From a virus (Duplodnaviria; Heunggongvirae; Uroviricota; Caudoviricetes), in IMG/VR virus record IMGVR_UViG_2571042445_000002: 64,000 nucleotides of DNA, one strand, 5' to 3'. Made by a program: the position numbers and the translations under genes. Under the pieces are notes generated by a model. It made no database searches. It had not been told where the DNA came from and saw only the letters and a list, made by a program, of their open reading frames with translations. Below, piece after piece: positions 2,421 to 47,331 of the stretch (within the stretch, counting starts at the first letter, position 1; every line of letters begins with the position of its first letter).

Positions 2421-2759
2421 TCAGGCTGCTTTTTTATTCAGGTTCCGCTGAGAAATAAATTTTTCAGCAGTATTGATACGACTTAACTCTTCCTGAACGC
2501 GCATATCATTTTCGACTTCCCACAGGTCTACTGCGGTCTGAAGATTAATCCAAAAATCTACAGAAGTATCGAATGCTTTTGCCAGGCGATATGCCATATC
2601 CATCGTTAGCTTACGATTGTTATTAACAAGAGCACTTACGGTGTTACGATGAACATGAAGTATTTCTGCTAACTCGTTGATCTTAAGCTCTAACGGCTCC
2701 AGGTATTCGTACAGCAGGATATCACCTACAGTCGTCGGTTTTCTGGTTGCCTGTTTCAT
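2421..2759 (-). CDS. higA: HigA-family antitoxin (HTH)
   Basis: 112 aa; HTH segment TVGDILLYEYLEPLELKINELAEILHVHRNTVSALV; directly follows toxin gene (toxin-first order typical of higBA). Confidence 0.6.
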   Translation of the reverse strand: MKQATRKPTTVGDILLYEYLEPLELKINELAEILHVHRNTVSALVNNNRKLTMDMAYRLAKAFDTSVDFWINLQTAVDLWEVENDMRVQEELSRINTAEKFISQRNLNKKAA

Positions 2760-2830
2760 TTTTTGCCCTTACTAGCGTGCGTATTAAGTGGACTCTGGTC
2801 AGTACCCGGCTCATCCGCCGGGTATTTGTT

Positions 2831-3133
2831 TTAGTATTTGTGAGGGTCGAGATACAAGTCCTCGGCCTTTCCGTTAACCCACTTAAAAATTAACCTGTAT
2901 TGCTTATTCACCCTTATTGATGAATAGCCGTTTAGCTTCCCTGACAATTCCTCATACCGATTACCTGGTGGTGATCTCAAGTCCTTCCAAGTAGTTGCAG
3001 CATTGATAATATCCAGCTTCCGCAACAATGTAATCTGAATATCAGAAGGTATCTTTTTGTGTGGTATTGAAAATTCAAAAAAATCATCAAGCCACTCATC
3101 CCTGAAATTCTTTATGTTAATCTTTTTGCTCAT
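2831..3133 (-). CDS. higB: HigB-family toxin (RelE/ParE superfamily mRNA interferase)
   Basis: 100 aa; C-terminal SIRVNKQYRLIFKWVNGKAEDLYLDPHKY resembles HigB/RelE core motifs; ATG at 3133. Confidence 0.6.
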   Translation of the reverse strand: MSKKINIKNFRDEWLDDFFEFSIPHKKIPSDIQITLLRKLDIINAATTWKDLRSPPGNRYEELSGKLNGYSSIRVNKQYRLIFKWVNGKAEDLYLDPHKY

Positions 3134-4088: not shown

Positions 4089-4852
4089 CACCCAACAAAA
4101 CTCTCCTGTCCCGCATTGGCGAGTGGCAGACAACGCGTACTGGAAAATTCCAGACAACTGGTCTGGAAAGAGTGGATAACGCTTTTGCTACGCTAATCAG
4201 TGACATTTTTTCTGACGTAACGCTGGTGGAACCAGCAAAAGAAGAAAGGCGCTTTGCATCATTCCTGAGTCGCCCACCAGCGGAGCGTGTTTATGTTGCC
4301 CGTTTTGATAACGCGGTCGAGTTCCTTAAAGCGGTTCGCCGTGCTAATGCCGGGCAAGGGAGAAAGCCAGAGAATCCGAACATTAATCGCGATGCACTCC
4401 CTCTGATTAATATCTCGCGCTCAATGGATATCAGCTATATCAACAATGACCAGCAGATAGACCGCAAAAGCTGTGATCACTTCTGCGAACCTGGCAGCGG
4501 TATGCCTTTAGTAGCCCTGGAATACACCCAGGCAAATCTGACGTATGACGTTACATTAATGGCGACGGATAAGGCGACCATGAGTCTGATGTGTAATTCG
4601 CTAGGAGCACGTCTTCGCTTGATGGCAGGAACGCAGTTTGAAGCAACAACCCCGCTGGTACGAGTACCCGTCCCGCTAATTTGCGCGATTCAGGATGCTA
4701 AAGACATCAGTTTTACTGATGTTTCAGCCCCGATTGGGGAAGAGCGTATTTATGCTGCACAAACGGCAATTAGTGTTATAGCAGACGTGATCACCGCCTG
4801 GGAGCTGGACGCGAAACGAATTATTACTGAAACCTCTCTGAGAATGGGGTAA
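4085..4852 (+). CDS. hypothetical phage protein
   Basis: 255-aa ORF translationally coupled to flanking genes. Confidence 0.45.
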   Translation: MTPNKTLLSRIGEWQTTRTGKFQTTGLERVDNAFATLISDIFSDVTLVEPAKEERRFASFLSRPPAERVYVARFDNAVEFLKAVRRANAGQGRKPENPNINRDALPLINISRSMDISYINNDQQIDRKSCDHFCEPGSGMPLVALEYTQANLTYDVTLMATDKATMSLMCNSLGARLRLMAGTQFEATTPLVRVPVPLICAIQDAKDISFTDVSAPIGEERIYAAQTAISVIADVITAWELDAKRIITETSLRMG

Positions 4853-11740: not shown

Positions 11741-11911
11741 GAGACACATTTGAGAAAGAATTGAATTTTATATGAGAAAACAAAATAAGACCAGAAGTTA
11801 GATAGCGTAGAAAGCATCAAACTAGAGACGTAAGAGAGACACAAAAGAGACTTAGATGATACATGATGTACCCATGATACCCTTTTGAGACAAATCAGAG
11901 ACAAATATGAG
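11741..11911. repeat. parC-like iteron array (GAGACA repeats at ~10-11 bp spacing) upstream of parM
   Basis: GAGACACA at 11741 and 11835, AGAGAC at 11824 and 11846, GAGACAAAT at 11887 and 11898. Confidence 0.5.
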
Positions 11912-11975
11912 AAGTAAGAAATCTGAAGAGTGAAAATCACAAAGTGGAGAAGATTTAAGAAAAAGGAGGTGTTAG

Positions 11976-21847: not shown

Positions 21848-21890
21848 AATGCAATATTAAAGTGCGAGAAGGAGAGGAAAGGACAAGCTT

Positions 21891-22081
21891 GAGGGCAATT
21901 TTTACACCAGCTATTTACACCAGTGATGGCATTTTTTACACATTCCTTATTAATCAATAAATTACTAATAATGTTAGCCGTTAAAGATCCAACCAACTCA
22001 CTAATGGTGTAAGAATTGCCCTCAATCTCTCATCTTTAAGGGCCAATCCTACACCTACAGAGAGGTGTAGAAATTGCCCTT
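21891..22081. repeat. AGGGCAAT(Y)2-3TACACC repeat family in both orientations, including a 44-bp imperfect palindrome at 22038-22081
   Basis: Copies at 21891-21908 (+), 22006-22025 (-), 22038-22055 (+), 22064-22080 (-); last two separated by 8-bp spacer. Confidence 0.5.
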
Positions 22082-22098
22082 AAGACTGCTGATGGAGA

Positions 22099-22330
22099 AA
22101 TGTTGACTATAGGCGAAATGGCTTACAACTAATGTTGACTGTACTCGATCCCGATCACAAAACATTGACTACACGCGACAAGAAATGAGAAAAGATTGAC
22201 TATAAGCGACAAATACTCAATGAAATAGCTGGTTTATCCATTGATCATGTGAAAAAGCTAATAACTAAATCCGCCAGCGTCAATGTTTGTCGCGTATAGT
22301 CAACGCTTAGAATCGCACACAGTCAATGTT
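22099..22330. repeat. incA-like iteron cluster downstream of repA (iterons in both orientations)
   Basis: TTGACTATAGGCG 22103, TTGACTGTACTCG 22135, TTGACTACACGCG 22166, TTGACTATAAGCG 22196; inverted CGCGTATAGTCAACG 22291, CGCACACAGTCAATG 22315. Confidence 0.55.
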
Positions 22331-23213
22331 ATGGATTTCGTTTATGGATCTGGAAACCTATTTTCCGACCATTCTTTATCTCTGAAAATTTAAGATATTC
22401 AACAGCTTCTAAGTCTTTCATGGCTTTACGAATCACACTGTTCTGAACGCTAACCGAGGACTTGAGGTTCAATCTGGCGCGAAGGCGCTCAATACTCACT
22501 GGCGCAGGGTTTGAAGGTAACGCTTCGAAAAACGTATAAAGCACCTTGGCTGTCTCTTTCCTGCCAAGTTTATCGAGCATTTTGAGCTTCAATATTCGCT
22601 TATAGTCAACGTAGTACAACTCAGACAACTGCTTCTGCGGTTGGATTCTTATAATGTCATTTTCAGTATCAAGTTCACTAAATGCCAATAAATTCATCTG
22701 GATATAACGAACATGTTCTTTGCTGGTGGGCAAGTTGAACTTCAGCAACGTCTGCTGAATACGCGTTAGAGAGTCGCCAATGCTCTTGCGAAAAGCCTTG
22801 GACAGCCGCTTCCTTGGATAACCGCAACGATCCACAAATTCAGAGAATGTTAGGGTGATCACACCATCATTGTCTGGTTTATAGTCAAACAATGCAGATG
22901 TAATGCCTATCCAAACCTTAAAATCAGTATCCATATCCAGGCGTGGCCCATGAATCTCAATACCCTGATACCCTTCCTGCTCTACAATCTTCAGGCTGGA
23001 CAGTTCTTCTGTCGCATCAGTTGAGTTAGTTAAACCGGCGTTCTTGCGACGTAAAGCAACACTGGTAGATTTCAATGTGGGAACAAACACCCCAAGCCGC
23101 AACAAAGCTATCGGCTGAATAGTGCTATTATTGTTAGGCTTTAAGCTGTGGATTTCTCCGGTATTCCCTGATATTTCCTCAACGTTCAGAAAGCCTTTTT
23201 TGTCATCTACCAT
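22329..23213 (-). CDS. repA: plasmid replication initiator RepA (P1 RepA-like)
   Basis: TIQPIALLRLGVFVP, HGPRLDMDTDFKVWIGI and C-terminal RLRARLNLKSSVSVQNSVIRKAMKDLEAVEYL parallel P1 RepA as recalled; flanked by iterons. Confidence 0.8.
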   Translation of the reverse strand: MVDDKKGFLNVEEISGNTGEIHSLKPNNNSTIQPIALLRLGVFVPTLKSTSVALRRKNAGLTNSTDATEELSSLKIVEQEGYQGIEIHGPRLDMDTDFKVWIGITSALFDYKPDNDGVITLTFSEFVDRCGYPRKRLSKAFRKSIGDSLTRIQQTLLKFNLPTSKEHVRYIQMNLLAFSELDTENDIIRIQPQKQLSELYYVDYKRILKLKMLDKLGRKETAKVLYTFFEALPSNPAPVSIERLRARLNLKSSVSVQNSVIRKAMKDLEAVEYLKFSEIKNGRKIGFQIHKRNP

Positions 23214-23261
23214 CCTGTTATTTCCTTGATTGACGGGGCTTTATAGCCAAATGAAAGATAC

Positions 23262-23505
23262 TTATCCACAGCCGTCTGAGGGCTGAGAGAATTATCGCAT
23301 ACAGTCAATGTTTATATCGCATATAGTCAACATTAAATCGCACATAGTCAACATTAAATCGCACATAGTCAACATTAAATCGCACATAGTCAATGTTGAT
23401 CGCCATTTAGGCCAGTGATGGCGCGGCTCGCAGCGATCCGGGATCTTCTTTGGATCTTACTGGTTCTCTTTGGGATCTATTTATTGGATCTACCCTGTGG
23501 ATAAA
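23262..23505. other. oriR-like plasmid origin: DnaA boxes, five 21-bp direct iterons, cluster of six GATC sites
   Basis: TTATCCACA 23262-23270; iterons TCGCAYAYAGTCAAYRTT at 23295, 23317, 23338, 23359, 23380; GATC at 23398, 23435, 23442, 23452, 23473, 23487; TGTGGATAA 23496-23504. Confidence 0.6.
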
Positions 23506-23575
23506 TAGGTTAAAGTCAAAATCACACACTCCCTATCCTCCAGCCAAACGAGTACCGACTTTTCTGGAGGAATCC

Positions 23576-28695: not shown

Positions 28696-30122
28696 GTATT
28701 ACCGAATTACTGGACAAGTTTAATGCCAAGCTGAACGAAAACCCCTGGTGGGCGCGATTTGTAAACAGCCAGTTTATTCAAATGCAGTCCGTTTTGGGCG
28801 CGCAGATTGTTTATATTGCGCGTACATTTGCAAGCCGTGCACTTACAGAAGGATTCATTTCCACCGCGACGCGTAGAGCAAGTATTCTCGCGGCAGCGGA
28901 AGACCGTGGCTATGTCGGTCGTTTGGTCGATGCGTCATACGGCACTGTTTCCATCACCAACAAAACCGACAGGGATATTACTCTACCCGGAGGGGCTGAA
29001 TTACTGACAAGTGACCAGACACCAATTGCAACCAGCAGTAGTGTTGTTATCCCTGCTGGTGAAACAGTACCCGGCATAGAAGTAAAACAGCATGAAGCAG
29101 TCAGCGTAACGTTCGACGTGGTGCAAGAAACACCATTCTTGACGCTGTTACTTTCCCGTGAGTTAACAGCAGAAGTCGCCAGCCTGGAAGTTGTCGTGAT
29201 AACTAATGGTGTCGAGGAAAAATGGACACATAACCCCCTGTTCCGCATGTCCAGGGATAACAGTAAACATTATGTGTTGGTTTATAAGCCGACAGAACAG
29301 ATCGGCGTGCGCTTCGGTGATGGATCAATGGGGATGATGCCAGCGGCAGGGAGTCAGGTACGCATTGATATTATGGCAAGCCTCGGTGATTACACGCTGG
29401 CTGAAGGCCAGAAACTTGAACCAGCAGGGAACATCTCCGGGTATGTCGAATCACTGGAAGTAAAAACCGATTCGATCATTTCTGGCGGTGGTGGCATGGA
29501 AACTACCGAGGAAACCCGAAACAGGGCGCAGTATTATGTGGCCTACGATGAGCAGGTTGTTTGGGGCGGTGATTACCGCCAGTTCATTCAGAACGTGGTC
29601 AGTGGCACGTCATGGCTTAACGTGTGGGGGGAGGCGCTACAGGAGAAAATCACGGGCTTTGATGTGCGTAATATCAACAAAATTTTCTTTTGTGGGCACA
29701 AGCCCGGCGTAACACAGGAAGCTCTGAAAACAGAGATATTATCAGCCCTTGAGAGTATCCCTAATGAGCTGAATAAGAAGTTCGAATACGTCGCCACCAA
29801 TGAACAGCCGTTCAACATCAAATTTACCGGTATCGTAAAAAAGAGTGTGCTGGTGGATGACGCGCTAACTGCAATTAAAGCGGCACTGGAGGAGAACTTC
29901 GGTAAAGACTCCATGTCATTTAGCCAGCTATTGCAGAGTGATGACGATTCACAGCAATGTTATGCACAGGTCAAAGTAAAAGATATCTGGCGAGTAATCG
30001 AATCGCTGGATATGTTCCTGTCTTATGACGTGGCTACGCAGAACATGAAAGAAGCTGTGTACTTTAATGATTTTGTTTATCTGGACGTGGAATCATCAAC
30101 GTTCAGCATAACCTATCCGTAA
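28692..30122 (+). CDS. baseplate wedge protein (gpJ/gp6-like)
   Basis: 476 aa; position between W-like and I-like genes; N-terminal region resembles Baseplate_J family by general pattern. Confidence 0.45.
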   Translation: MSITELLDKFNAKLNENPWWARFVNSQFIQMQSVLGAQIVYIARTFASRALTEGFISTATRRASILAAAEDRGYVGRLVDASYGTVSITNKTDRDITLPGGAELLTSDQTPIATSSSVVIPAGETVPGIEVKQHEAVSVTFDVVQETPFLTLLLSRELTAEVASLEVVVITNGVEEKWTHNPLFRMSRDNSKHYVLVYKPTEQIGVRFGDGSMGMMPAAGSQVRIDIMASLGDYTLAEGQKLEPAGNISGYVESLEVKTDSIISGGGGMETTEETRNRAQYYVAYDEQVVWGGDYRQFIQNVVSGTSWLNVWGEALQEKITGFDVRNINKIFFCGHKPGVTQEALKTEILSALESIPNELNKKFEYVATNEQPFNIKFTGIVKKSVLVDDALTAIKAALEENFGKDSMSFSQLLQSDDDSQQCYAQVKVKDIWRVIESLDMFLSYDVATQNMKEAVYFNDFVYLDVESSTFSITYP

Positions 30123-30131
30123 GAGGTCACA

Positions 30132-30974
30132 ATGCAGAATAACTGGCTAAAAGAGCGTCTGACGCAATTTAAACAGGATTCTAAATTGTGGGCCGCCTTT
30201 GTTGATACGATTCAGGACGTGTGGAATGAATCGGTTGAACCTATTCTCACGCGAATAAGCAACCGTAAATCGTTTTTCACAATGGCAAGGGAGGATATGG
30301 ACACTCGCATTGCTGAATATGGTCGTTTCTTTGTTATCACAGAAACGGACAAAACACGCAGGCCAATGCTATTAGCTCAACGACTGGATGAGGTGCACTT
30401 CAAAGGAACAGTAAGGCCGATAGAGCAAACGTTCTGGCGTGAATTTGGCACAATCCCCGTCTCATGGGAACCTTTGTATGCGCCTGTCGATACAGAAAAA
30501 CATCCCTATGGTTCATTCTTCGCGACTGCAAATGAAATACCGACTGCTCAGGCACAATATGGTGAGTTTTTCCTGACATCCAGAGGGCTGGTTGTCGTCA
30601 ACCAAAATAAGCTGTATCGAGCTTATGATAGCGATGACAGAGACGTTGCTGTACAGAAGCTACTTGCTGATTTTGATACGGTTATAGCGCCGCTATTGCC
30701 ATTGCATATCGTGTTTGATGGTGTTTCTTTCCAGTTGAGCGCAACATTGCCGGAAATGGCGGAGATCCTGAATTGCTTATCTGCGGAAGTGTCCTTTATT
30801 GAGGGGGTGTACACGACGCAAGAGATGGTCGATGAACTATCTATTAGCGATACGATCATTCAATTAGACGGCATCCAGTTCGCAGGAAGGCCAGACCGGA
30901 CGACGGAAAGAGTGCTTCATCTCGATGAACTCCCGCTCGACGCCTGGGCGCTGGATTATAATTTTGCACCTTAG
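30132..30974 (+). CDS. tail protein, gpI-like candidate
   Basis: 280 aa following J-like gene. Confidence 0.35.
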   Translation: MQNNWLKERLTQFKQDSKLWAAFVDTIQDVWNESVEPILTRISNRKSFFTMAREDMDTRIAEYGRFFVITETDKTRRPMLLAQRLDEVHFKGTVRPIEQTFWREFGTIPVSWEPLYAPVDTEKHPYGSFFATANEIPTAQAQYGEFFLTSRGLVVVNQNKLYRAYDSDDRDVAVQKLLADFDTVIAPLLPLHIVFDGVSFQLSATLPEMAEILNCLSAEVSFIEGVYTTQEMVDELSISDTIIQLDGIQFAGRPDRTTERVLHLDELPLDAWALDYNFAP

Positions 30975-31090
30975 CAAACCAGGCCCCACCAACCTGGGTG
31001 GGGCCATTTCTCAAAACAAAAGACCACTGGAAATCACAAACTGAACATACTGCCCTTCGATTTATTGCTTGTTAAAGGGGCTATGTTCGT

Positions 31091-31537
31091 ATGGCTGAAA
31101 CTTTAAAATCCCAAAGCGATTCAAGTATTTACAAGGCGCAACTCCTTTCTTACTACTACTCTCGCCGTGCAGAGTCTGCAATCGGCAGGGGTGAGCGTTT
31201 TGTTATGACAAAGGCTTATTGGTGCAAGTCCGATCTTGTGACGGTAAATAGTGCTGGTGGCTGGACTATTTCTGATATTCCGCTCGACTTCAAGTTAAGT
31301 GATGCACAGCATTTTGCTGAATCCAATCTCATTCTTTCCAGCCTCGATGGTGTCATTACGATTAATGCCGCTTTTCCACAAGAAACGATGCCGGACGATA
31401 CACCTTACGATTTCAATACGCTGGTTCTCGTAGATGCAGAGGATCAGGCTTTTGGGGTTGTTTGTACTCAACAGGACACCTTATTCAAAGGTAAGCGATA
31501 CAGCTTGCTCATGACCATTGAACAGGTCGAGGGATAA
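31091..31537 (+). CDS. hypothetical protein
   Basis: 148-aa ORF immediately upstream of tail fiber gene. Confidence 0.4.
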   Translation: MAETLKSQSDSSIYKAQLLSYYYSRRAESAIGRGERFVMTKAYWCKSDLVTVNSAGGWTISDIPLDFKLSDAQHFAESNLILSSLDGVITINAAFPQETMPDDTPYDFNTLVLVDAEDQAFGVVCTQQDTLFKGKRYSLLMTIEQVEG

Positions 31538-31539
31538 TT

Positions 31540-34500
31540 ATGTGCGCAGATAAAGTAAAGAATATTGTCACCTTATCTTCGGACATTTCCGCTCCACTAA
31601 TTGCAGACATGCAATACTTTGAGCTGTATAGCACCGAAGCTCTAAACAGGAAGATGAAAAATATCGTTCTGCCCGGAGTGTACTGTGGGTTTGAACCGGT
31701 GCCAGGGGATGGTCTGTTTGTGCGTATTACATCCGAGAAAACAGAGGGAAGAGGGGCGGCTTCAATTGACGTGGGTAAATGTCAGATATCCGTGCAGCAA
31801 GTCAGTGATGTTCTTGTTCCTGTAGAAGCTGGTGTAACGACAATCATCGTTCTTGAAGCTAATTACGAACATGGAGTGAAAACCAGCCAGGTAGATAGCT
31901 CATCGGATATTAGCGCAGCGAGAATTATTGCTCTCGTTGATGAGGAAATAGCATCTAACCAGATTGAGCTATGCCGCGTGATCGTGCCTGACAATGCTCA
32001 AGCCGTTACCGCAGATATGATTAGCACTGAATATCGTGCTAATCGTGCTGTTGGTGTTGAGTTTTCCAGTGCTTTGGATAGTGACGAAGAATATAAAGCC
32101 GCAACACCTCTTGCTATCAGCACGTTAAACAAACTAAAAGCTCCGGTTGATAGCCCGGAGTTTATTGGTATACCTAAATCTCCAACTCCGGAACAAGGTA
32201 CAAACAGTACACAAATCGCAAACACTGCCTTTGTTCAGGCCGCAATAACCGCCCTTATTGATGGTTCTCCTTCGGCGTTGGATACGCTGAAAAAAATTGC
32301 AGATGCAATTAACAATGATCCTCAGTTTAGCCAGACGATTAATGCTGCTTTAGCTCTTAAAGCACCGTTATTAAGCCCGGCATTTACAGGGGTGCCAACA
32401 GCGCCTACAGCGTCACAAGGTACGAACAACACTCAGATTGCAACAACCGCTTATGTTCGTGCCGCTATTTCTGCATTGGTCGGCTCATCACCAGAAGCTC
32501 TTGATACTCTTAATGAGCTTGCTGCGGCGCTGGGCAATGACCCGAACTTTGCGGCTACAATGACAAATGCCCTGGCAGGTAAGCAGCCTCTCGACGCAAC
32601 CTTAACCGCGCTCGCTGACCTGGCGACGGGGGCAAATAAATTACCGTACTTTACCGGAACAGACACTGTAGCCCAGACTGATTTAACGTCAGTCGGTCGC
32701 GATATTCTTGCTAAAACAAGCACACTGGCTGTTATCCAATACCTTGGTTTAAGAGAACTCGGAACCAGCGGAGAAAAGCTCCCCCTGTTGAGCACAGCTA
32801 ATACCTGGAGTGCACGCCAGACTTTCAGCGCGGGGATCACTGGTACGCTGACCGGGAACGCCGATACTGCGACGAAATTAAAAACAGCCAGAAAGATTAA
32901 CGGTGTGGCATTTGATGGGTCGGCAGATATTACTCTGACCCCTGAAGATCTTGGCTTAACGGATATTGCTTCTCAAGCTGGTAACGCAGTTCAGCGTTCT
33001 GGCGACACAATGGGGGGGCAGCTAAAAATTGGCACAATAAATGCCCTTCGAATATTTAACCAGGACTTTGGCCTTATCTTCAGGAGATCCGAGGAATATC
33101 TTCATCTTATCCCGACAAATGAAGGGGAGGGTGAAAATGGTGACATCGGGCCATTAAGACCATTTTCTATAAACTTAAGAACTGGGTTGGTGTCCATCGG
33201 TAACGGCGTAAAAGTTGGCGGTGGTATTACTGGTAATTTGACGGGAAACGCAGATACTGCCACAAAGCTCAAGATAGCTCGAACGATCGGCGGAGTGTCA
33301 TTTGATGGCAGCGCCAATATCGACCTGCCTGGCGTGAATAAAACAGGTAATCAGAGCACTACCGGCAATGCTGCAACCGCAACGAAACTTCAGACGGCAC
33401 GCACAATCGGCGGAGTGTCATTTGATGGCAGCGCCAATATCGACCTGCCTGGCGTGAATAAAACAGGTAATCAGAGCACTACCGGCAATGCTGCAACCGC
33501 AACGAAACTTCAGACGGCACGCACAATCGGCGGAGTGTCATTTGATGGCAGCGCCAATATCGACCTGCCTGGCGTGAATAAAACGGGTAATCAGAGCACT
33601 ACCGGCAATGCTGCAACCGCAACGAAACTTCAGACGGCAAGAACAATCGGCGGGGTGGCATTTGATGGCACTGCCAATATCAACCTGCCGGGTGTGAACA
33701 TTGCTGGTAACCAGAACACAACAGGTAATGCTGCAACCGCTACAAAACTGCAAACAGCCCGCACAATCAACGGTGTTAAGTTTGATGGTTCTGCGAACAT
33801 TTCGATACCAACAATTACGTCCAGAGGGCGTGTTACTGCGCTCACCAGTACAACGCAAGGTGCTACTACTGGATTGCAGATGTATGAGGCGTACAACAAC
33901 GGCTATCCTTCTGCTTACGGGAATGTGCTTCATCTTAAGGGCGCAACTGCCGCTGGTGAAGGCGAGTTGTTCATAGGTTGGAGCGGCACAAGTGGTGCTC
34001 ATGCGCCTGTACATGTACGTTCGCGACGAGATACTGATACAGCCAGTTGGTCTGAGTGGGCGCAGGTCTACACATCGAAGGATTCCATCCCTGGTGTAAA
34101 TACAACAGGCAACCAGAACACAACCGGAAACGCGGCGTCTGCAACGAAATTACAAACGGCAAGAACTATTGGTGGTGTTTCATTTAATGGCACCGCAAAC
34201 ATCGACCTGCCGGGCGTGAATAAAACAGGTAATCAGAGCACTACCGGCAATGCTGCAACTGCAACGAAACTACAAACAGCGCGCACAATAGGCGGGGTTT
34301 CGTTTGATGGTACAGCAAACATCAATCTTCCGGGCGTTAATATTGCCGGAAATCAAAATACAAGTGGTAATGCAGCTACAGCGACAAAGTTAAAAACTGC
34401 CAGAAAAATAAGTGGAGTGGCTTTTGATGGTTCTGCAGACATCACATTAACGGCAAGTCATGTTGGTGCGTTACCAACAACAGGTGGTACTGTTACCGGT

Positions 34501-46624: not shown

Positions 46625-47331
46625 TGGATATCTGCATTCTCGAAAAGCCATCAATGACCAGCATTGAGATCGCGGAGCTGGTGGGAAAACGTCATGACAA
46701 TGTGAAACGCACTATTGAGACATTAGACAAAGGTGGCGTTATTGTTCGTCCTCAAATTGAGGTTTTCGAAAAAATCAATAACTTAGGACTACGACGTAGT
46801 GTTGAGGCTTACGTCTTCGAAGGCGAGCAAGGCAAGCGCGATAGCATTATCGTCGTCGCGCAGCTCTCTCCCGAATTCACCGCCCGGCTGGTGGACCGCT
46901 GGCGCGAACTGGAAGAACAAGTACGCCAGCCGTTGACCGAAATAGAGATGATCGCTGCAATGGCTGCAAATGCAGTTCAGCAGCAAAAGCGGCTTCATGT
47001 TGTTGAGTCAAAGGTTAGCCAGGTTGCTGAAACCGTCGAGCAGATCAAGAAGGGCAACATGCCAGAAGGTTACATTGGCTATCGTCAGTTAGCGGCGAAA
47101 TGTGGCCTGACTGAAGCCAAATGCCGTAACCTGGTCAACGCTAACCGGATTCCCACAGATACGCATGAGTTTTTGACGCCAGAGGGGGTATTGTCGCGTC
47201 GTACTATTGTGGCCTTATCTCCCTTCATGAATGCCTTTACCCTGATGATGTCGGAGGCTGAACACCGAGGAAAACGCTGGTATCACCCAAGGATGGGACA
47301 ATTCCAGGTGATCGGTTGGGGAGGCGAGTGA
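46624..47331 (+). CDS. phage antirepressor (Rha/Ant-like N-terminal domain)
   Basis: N-terminus ILEKPSMTSIEIAELVGKRHDNVKRTIETL matches Rha-family pattern; SD GGAGG 9 nt upstream. Confidence 0.6.
   Translation: MDICILEKPSMTSIEIAELVGKRHDNVKRTIETLDKGGVIVRPQIEVFEKINNLGLRRSVEAYVFEGEQGKRDSIIVVAQLSPEFTARLVDRWRELEEQVRQPLTEIEMIAAMAANAVQQQKRLHVVESKVSQVAETVEQIKKGNMPEGYIGYRQLAAKCGLTEAKCRNLVNANRIPTDTHEFLTPEGVLSRRTIVALSPFMNAFTLMMSEAEHRGKRWYHPRMGQFQVIGWGGE

Follow-up and report, generated by a model that had tools for sequence, protein, structure and literature searches.

Probable RepE-type iterons stranded beside a P1-family replicon in a phage D6-like phage-plasmid

The repeats at 21891-22081 of the window (the whole 64,000-nucleotide stretch of DNA analysed here) are very probably iterons of an initiator related to RepE of mini-F, orphaned when a P1-family replicon replaced the one to which they belonged, rather than a recombinase site. 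They are a known kind of element, RepE-family iterons, in an unusual state, having lost their replicon through a swap in a phage-plasmid. A literature search with the phrase 'orphan iterons' found no paper. The first-pass annotation of this DNA had described a second repeat family next to the replicon, presumably bound by a protein other than RepA, and had likened part of it to tyrosine-recombinase or dimer-resolution sites. The second family and its separate binding protein stand; the recombinase mechanism does not, and is replaced by RepE-like iterons.

The window is part of a phage D6-like phage-plasmid. The repeat locus is 100% identical to NZ_CP085065.1, a 94-kb non-mobilizable E. coli plasmid, and the whole window matches this sister plasmid at ~98-99% identity, with the exception of one variable stretch. 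The annotation of NZ_CP085065.1 is that of a P1-like phage-plasmid, with genes for head and tail proteins, pacase, Ref, Icd, Phd/Doc, a lytic replication protein and ParM/ParR, as well as one plasmid initiator and a tyrosine recombinase. Statements about the element beyond the window are inferred from this 99%-identical plasmid and not from the window's own genome. The repeats are located in a convergent intergenic region, between the end of a tail gene on the + strand (21847), which is tub in phage D6, and the end of the initiator gene on the - strand (Table 1).

Several other features of the window were identified in this comparison. The sole large stretch that diverges from NZ_CP085065.1 (39681-42068) consists of an 83%-identical piece and a displaced piece, and is a variable or rearranged accessory region adjoining TnpB-family and HicA genes of the sister plasmid. 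Offset, overlapping BLAST pieces of 77-91% identity at 33286-33768 and 34090-34442 indicate internal repeats of ~120 nt in a large tail-fibre gene. A segment of 104 nt (46814-46917) has a second match in the sister plasmid (record 10397-10499, 97%), near a second Icd-like gene, and is a short dispersed duplication. Upstream of parM (11741-11912) is a series of GAGACA repeats with an 11-bp period, probably parC, the centromere of ParMR partition.

The second repeat family has the motif AGGGCAAT-N3-TACACC and occurs in five copies, one of them degenerate, within 191 bp. Direct reading of the sequence confirmed the four copies in alternating orientation (+ - + -) first described, and also the inverted arms around an 8-bp spacer, which form a 44-bp palindrome (22038-22081) with iterons 5 and 6 facing each other across TACAGAGA. 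The degenerate fifth copy and a non-conserved half-site, TTTACACC (21914-21921), had been overlooked. Identical families and arms were recovered by a repeat finder. A search of the 64-kb window with the pattern AGGGCAATNNNTACACC identified three copies perfect over all 14 specified bases and one with two mismatches; any other match in the window has three mismatches at best, and neither the window nor the complete sister plasmid has a copy of the motif outside the cluster. In 100 dinucleotide-preserving shuffles the observed count of matches was never reached, and by our own arithmetic ~5e-4 exact matches are expected by chance in 128 kb of two-strand sequence. Thus, the cluster is not a chance occurrence. 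The resident iterons (consensus ATGTTGACTATAGGCGA) are unrelated to it in sequence, as the first-pass annotation had stated.

Table 1. Features of the repeat locus and the adjoining resident replicon (positions in the window; iteron numbers follow the six downstream sites of D6-type relatives).
Feature	Position	Strand	Remarks
Orphan D6-type (RepE-like) iteron 1, GAGGGCAATTTTTACACC	21891..21908	+	Exact motif match; identical to site 1 of the L002 downstream cluster
Orphan iteron 2/3, GATGGCATTTTTTACACA, degenerate	21925..21942	+	Fusion of ancestral sites 2 and 3
AT-rich spacer, 63 bp, 73% A+T	21943..22005	.	Separates direct from inverted sites
Orphan iteron 4, GGTGTAAGAATTGCCCTC as read; GAGGGCAATTCTTACACC on - strand	22006..22023	-	
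Orphan iteron 5, AAGGGCCAATCCTACACC	22038..22055	+	Left arm of 44-bp palindrome
Palindrome spacer, 8 bp, TACAGAGA	22056..22063	.	
Orphan iteron 6, GGTGTAGAAATTGCCCTT as read; AAGGGCAATTTCTACACC on - strand	22064..22081	-	Right palindrome arm
RepE-like gene remnant, TTAAGACTGCTGAT	22080..22093	-	Reverse complement of last four codons + stop (..YQQS*)
Downstream incA-like iterons of resident replicon	22100..22330	+	Direct: 22100, 22132, 22162, 22193; inverted: 22290-22306, 22313-22330
Resident repA, 294 aa, P1 RepA family, rep_cluster_2164	22329..23213	-	
Resident origin	23262..23504	-	Five tandem iterons 23295-23396; six GATC motifs 23398-23490; perfect DnaA boxes 23262 and 23496

In seven other plasmids the match to the locus covers the tail-gene side, with the second repeat family, and excludes the resident iterons and rep gene; in one further plasmid it covers the latter and excludes the left side. 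At the position corresponding to that of the resident initiator, three of the related loci (L002, L003 and L005) encode a different initiator of 251 aa. Directly upstream of the gene for this protein, in L002, L003, L005, L009 and L010, we identified five tandem copies of TGAGGGCAA(A/T)T..TACACC, followed by an AT-rich, DnaA-box-like stretch and one inverted copy. The five copies are at 4261-4377 in L002 and the inverted copy at 4500, and reading of the sequence identified the DnaA-box-like TGTGGATAT in the AT-rich stretch of this locus. The five-copy array is the putative D6-type origin, on the grounds of its anatomy and of analogy with F. Downstream of the gene, from its stop codon, the same five loci have six copies in the arrangement + + + (AT-rich) - + -, and the last pair is the palindrome of the window. 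This six-site cluster is also present in phage D6 (L012), whose whole replicon is 99.3% identical to L009. In D6-type plasmids iteron 6 abuts and overlaps the stop codon of the RepE-like gene. Given that the motif forms both the origin array and the downstream cluster of this gene in the relatives, we infer that the window repeats are iterons of its product. The proposal of the first-pass annotation that a protein other than the resident RepA binds them is upheld in this form, as a prediction from the relatives. The D6-type rep gene also carries a copy of its own iteron, GAGGGCAAATTATACATC, within the coding sequence (3994-4011 in L002; 5/5 loci scanned: L002, L003, L005, L009 and L010).

When six D6-type sequences were aligned, invariant columns made up 84% of the alignment within the six downstream sites versus 40% between the sites (Fisher p = 4e-14), and it follows that the sites are under constraint where they are native. 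The palindrome spacer has a constant length in the relatives and a varying sequence (TTGAGAGG, TACAGCGT and TTGAGAAG). Conserved sites with a spacer of fixed length and variable sequence are the pattern expected of protein-binding sites. The AT-rich spacer is present at the same position in all relatives, with a poorly conserved sequence. In iteron 5 the window has C at a position where its closest D6-type sisters (L002, L003 and L005) have A.

The 251-aa protein matches the mini-F RepE structures in the PDB (1REP, 7UXY) at E = 5e-74 and 50% identity, and contains the Pfam domains Rep3_N (3.8e-29) and Rep3_C (2.7e-15). The RepE-like cassette is found in 110 PLSDB records, nearly all of them non-mobilizable plasmids of E. 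coli or Salmonella of ~90 kb. The phage D6 replicon matches it at 99.3% identity; there the gene, orf42 (annotated as 'putative plasmid replication initiation'), lies between tub and pmgB. A megablast search of the phage collection with the window locus gave no matches; the link to phage D6 surfaced only with the D6-type cassette of a sister plasmid as the query. Also among the PLSDB matches to the cassette is pYU39_89 (CP011430), a D6-like plasmid prophage with a repB that is associated with iterons (PMC6799933). The D6 replicon and pYU39_89 resemble the window in genome position, in the flanking tail genes and in the downstream cluster, including the palindrome. Unlike the D6 replicon, the window lacks the D6-type rep gene, the origin array and one site, and has a P1-family cassette instead.

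The organization of the D6-type replicon is similar to that of the F plasmid (ori2/incC; RepE, IncFIA). In the F sequence, read directly, four ori2 iterons (TGTGACAAATTGCCCTCAG) are located upstream of repE, and the repE stop codon is followed at once by five incC iterons that point the other way. The incC locus is a negative regulator of copy number and a determinant of incompatibility, and acts via titration of RepE and looping to the origin (PMC13028717). Thus F and D6-type replicons, in addition to initiators that are 50% identical, share a layout in which tandem iterons are placed upstream of rep and a further cluster begins at the stop codon. When both are written on one strand, the half-site TGAGGGCAATTT is common to the F consensus, CTGAGGGCAATTTGTCACAG, and to the motif of the window, TTGAGGGCAATTTTTACACC, and the two are of similar length (19-bp repeats versus an 18-bp motif), whereas the other half-site differs (GTCACAG in F, TTACACC in the window). 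The five incC repeats are uniformly inverted, whereas the D6-type cluster has mixed orientation, a central AT-rich stretch and a head-to-head pair, so its native role could be unlike that of incC, for example that of a second origin. In addition, the TACACC ends of the window palindrome point inward, whereas the arms of the F repE operator point the opposite way. Finally, F differs from the window in that the gene and origin cognate to the repeats are absent from the window.

The resident initiator is 85% identical at the amino acid level to RepA of the P1-like phages RCS47, SJ46 and phi456, 45% to RepA of SSU5 and 41% to RepA of P1/P7. Its Rep_3 signature is weak, no relative with a solved structure was found, and BLASTP of the resident RepA against the RepE-like protein detected no similarity. 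The layout of the resident replicon is the oriR-repA-incA of the P1 family, and the RCS47-type replicon is laid out alike. As it has its own iterons, origin and DnaA boxes, the resident replicon is complete without the second-family repeats. The incA locus of the P1 plasmid replicon consists of initiator-binding repeats downstream of repA that function in copy-number control, and the resident cassette of the window is arranged exactly so. These incA-type repeats belong to the resident RepA, whereas the second-family repeats would belong to a different initiator family. A copy of the resident iteron with 2 mismatches to the consensus is present inside the repA coding sequence (22596-22612, - strand).

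The P1-family cassette of the window (~22095-23520, ~1.42 kb) is found in place of ~1.06 kb containing the RepE-like gene and its origin, and brings a P1-family repA, its own origin and its own downstream iterons. The left junction is directly after TTAAGACTGCTGAT: the window is identical to L002 up to and including the final 14 nt of the RepE-like ORF, and unrelated beyond. The right junction (~23518) is just before the shared TCACACACTCCCTATCCTC upstream of pmgB, from where the window and L002 are collinear again. Such junctions indicate that the RepE-like gene and origin were replaced by the P1-family cassette and that the old downstream cluster was left behind. The tandem origin array of D6-type replicons is absent from the window, having been replaced. 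Searches of the window and NZ_CP085065.1 by tblastn with the D6-type initiator and F RepE gave a best E value of 0.3 or worse; with no cognate initiator on either, we refer to the repeats as orphan. At >95% identity the P1-family cassette occurs in only 2 PLSDB plasmids, both D6-like, versus 110 with the RepE-like cassette, and in D6-type loci, of which 4.5-6.5 kb around the replicon were examined, no P1-family iterons were identified. These record counts, the stranded gene end and the lack of P1-family iterons in D6-type loci give the direction of the swap, from RepE-type to P1-family.

In both of its carriers the orphan cluster differs from that of the D6-type relatives. In all aligned D6-type relatives 100 nt lie between sites 2 and 3; the window lacks this stretch. 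The deletion end points are inside both sites, and the alignment indicates that a deletion between two direct copies fused ancestral sites 2 and 3. CP042620 (L004) carries the same resident cassette, at 96.7% identity, on the other backbone subtype, to which D6 and L009 belong. It has kept sites 1 to 4 of that subtype, lost site 5 and has a single hybrid palindrome arm; ~58 nt were apparently lost via recombination between the like-oriented sites 4 and 6. The P1-family cassette is thus accompanied in CP042620.1 by the D6 subtype's own version of the orphan sites (2694-3060). The distribution suggests transfer of the cassette from one backbone to another by homologous recombination, in which the left crossover fell within the cluster of iterons. 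Of 5,426 complete E. coli genomes, 6 contain the window junction at 100% identity; these 6 are of human, wild-bird and monkey origin, and the hybrid is therefore a circulating lineage.

We propose that the native D6-type replicon, located between the tail-tube gene and pmgB, is mini-F-like, with the origin array upstream of rep and an incC-like cluster downstream. In the lineage of the window, recombination swapped the RepE-like gene and origin array for the 1.4-kb P1-family cassette, and the old downstream cluster stayed behind without its protein. If the D6-type initiator were supplied in trans, a monomer should still bind to each copy, and the palindrome would represent two initiator-binding sites placed head to head. 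In its native setting the cluster may lower copy number by titration or origin pairing, by analogy with incC in F. As the cognate protein is not produced, the cluster would play no part in how the resident plasmid replicates, and the orphan iterons are probably inert for that plasmid. The only likely remaining activity would be interference with a co-resident D6-type plasmid; by analogy with F, the repeats may exert incompatibility against D6-type relatives.

Other readings of the repeats were weighed against this assignment. A role for the 44-bp palindrome in the resolution of plasmid dimers by a tyrosine recombinase, as a site of the lox/rox or Xer type, is extremely improbable, although the palindrome has inverted arms and an 8-bp spacer and the sister plasmid encodes a Cre/Dre-like recombinase. 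The window itself contains no recombinase gene, as had been noted, and the search elsewhere on the element that the first-pass annotation proposed located this one at record 29898-30926 of the sister plasmid, ~3.4 kb past the right end of the window; it matches Cre at E = 4e-72. A 32-bp palindrome, TAACTTTAAATAATGCCAATTATTTAAAGTTA, is present ~150 bp from the gene (record 31079-31110), and we take it to be the rox site of the D6 recombinase Dre. The recombinase and TAACTTTAAATAATGCCAATTATTTAAAGTTA are likely the dimer-resolution system of the element. The repeat locus corresponds to record 78854-79044, ~48 kb from the recombinase, and has no sequence likeness to TAACTTTAAATAATGCCAATTATTTAAAGTTA; as the recombinase has its own rox-like site that far away, the lox reading of the repeats fails. 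The loxP/Cre and rox/Dre systems share with the repeats a palindrome with a short spacer, but arm sequence, arm length and genomic position are unrelated. Compared with the 13-14-bp inverted arms and 4-8-bp crossover spacer of lox/rox-type sites, the geometry here is ambiguous: the 8-bp spacer fits, but the arms are 18 bp, with central positions that are not symmetric. The arms are full copies of a motif that is also found singly and in five-fold tandem at the replication origin, and the palindrome is not kept in CP042620, where one arm is gone despite the same resident replicon. For an Xer-type site, no match to the XerD arm (TTATGTTAAAT) within 2 mismatches was found in 21891-22081. Use of the sites by the resident plasmid, as host DnaA boxes, an auxiliary origin or extra control sites for the resident RepA, is very unlikely. 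By our own reading the half TTTTTACAC(A/C) resembles a relaxed DnaA box, and the copy at 21934 fits the strict consensus TTWTNCACA, but this consensus fits 1/5 copies and leaves the conserved AGGGCAAT half unexplained. Direct sites, a 73% A+T stretch and inverted sites do make up an origin-like layout; however, two perfect DnaA boxes and a separate set of iterons are already present at the resident origin, the two families of iterons share nothing and no similarity between the initiators was detected. We give similarly little credence to an RNA hairpin that ends or stabilises the convergent tail-tube and rep transcripts. The convergent intergenic location would suit such a hairpin, and the palindrome folds at -26 to -29 kcal/mol on either strand (z about -5), but any palindrome would fold so. 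There is no T-tract, a terminator scan made no call, the central arm positions are not complementary, and conservation tracks the iteron motif and not base pairing. An Rfam search returned sub-threshold miRNA hairpin noise only. Two further candidates were rejected: operators of a phage repressor scattered over the genome, as are the C1 operators of P1 (the motif is nowhere else in the window or sister plasmid), and the ParR centromere parC (the region upstream of parM has its own unrelated repeats, 10 kb away).

A last alternative accepts the RepE-like identity of the repeats and differs from our explanation only on their present function. The cluster persists in two subtypes of the backbone and in six complete E. 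coli plasmids that are identical, which could mean that it is still useful and not a relic. Selection may have kept it for one-way incompatibility or exclusion, through titration of an incoming D6-type initiator or pairing with its origin, although we consider this unlikely. Clusters of the incC type act in trans for incompatibility in F (PMC13028717), near-intact sites survive in both subtypes and in the six complete E. coli genomes, and with no iteron sequence in common with the resident replicon there would be no self-interference. However, the 100-nt deletion that fused two window sites represents erosion, and CP042620 has lost ~58 nt between iterons 4 and 6, including one palindrome arm. 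Site 5 of the window is substituted at an otherwise conserved position, and the decoy dose would be low at one to two copies per cell. The deletions in the window and CP042620 point towards decay. The swaps look recent, so retention needs no selection; they look too recent for decay to be informative.

The locus provides a base-pair-resolved example of the replacement of a RepE-type by a P1 RepA-type initiator at one locus of a D6-like phage-plasmid. It serves as a warning for annotation, in that iteron-like repeats beside a rep gene may belong to another initiator, and typing of phage-plasmid replicons by the rep gene alone hides such hybrids. The fragment 21880-22095 could serve as a specific tool for curing of, or interference with, D6-type elements, which in Salmonella in some cases travel alongside resistance plasmids. 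As a simple source of asymmetric incompatibility between related plasmids, stranded iterons could shape which phage-plasmids share a host. Tentatively, and with considerable doubt, the stranded iterons may act as a decoy against D6-type phage-plasmids, so that the swapped lineage would be unilaterally incompatible with its relatives and itself immune, because it replicates with a P1-family RepA. If this were true, decoy iterons would be a replication-level weapon in competition and exclusion between sibling phage-plasmids.
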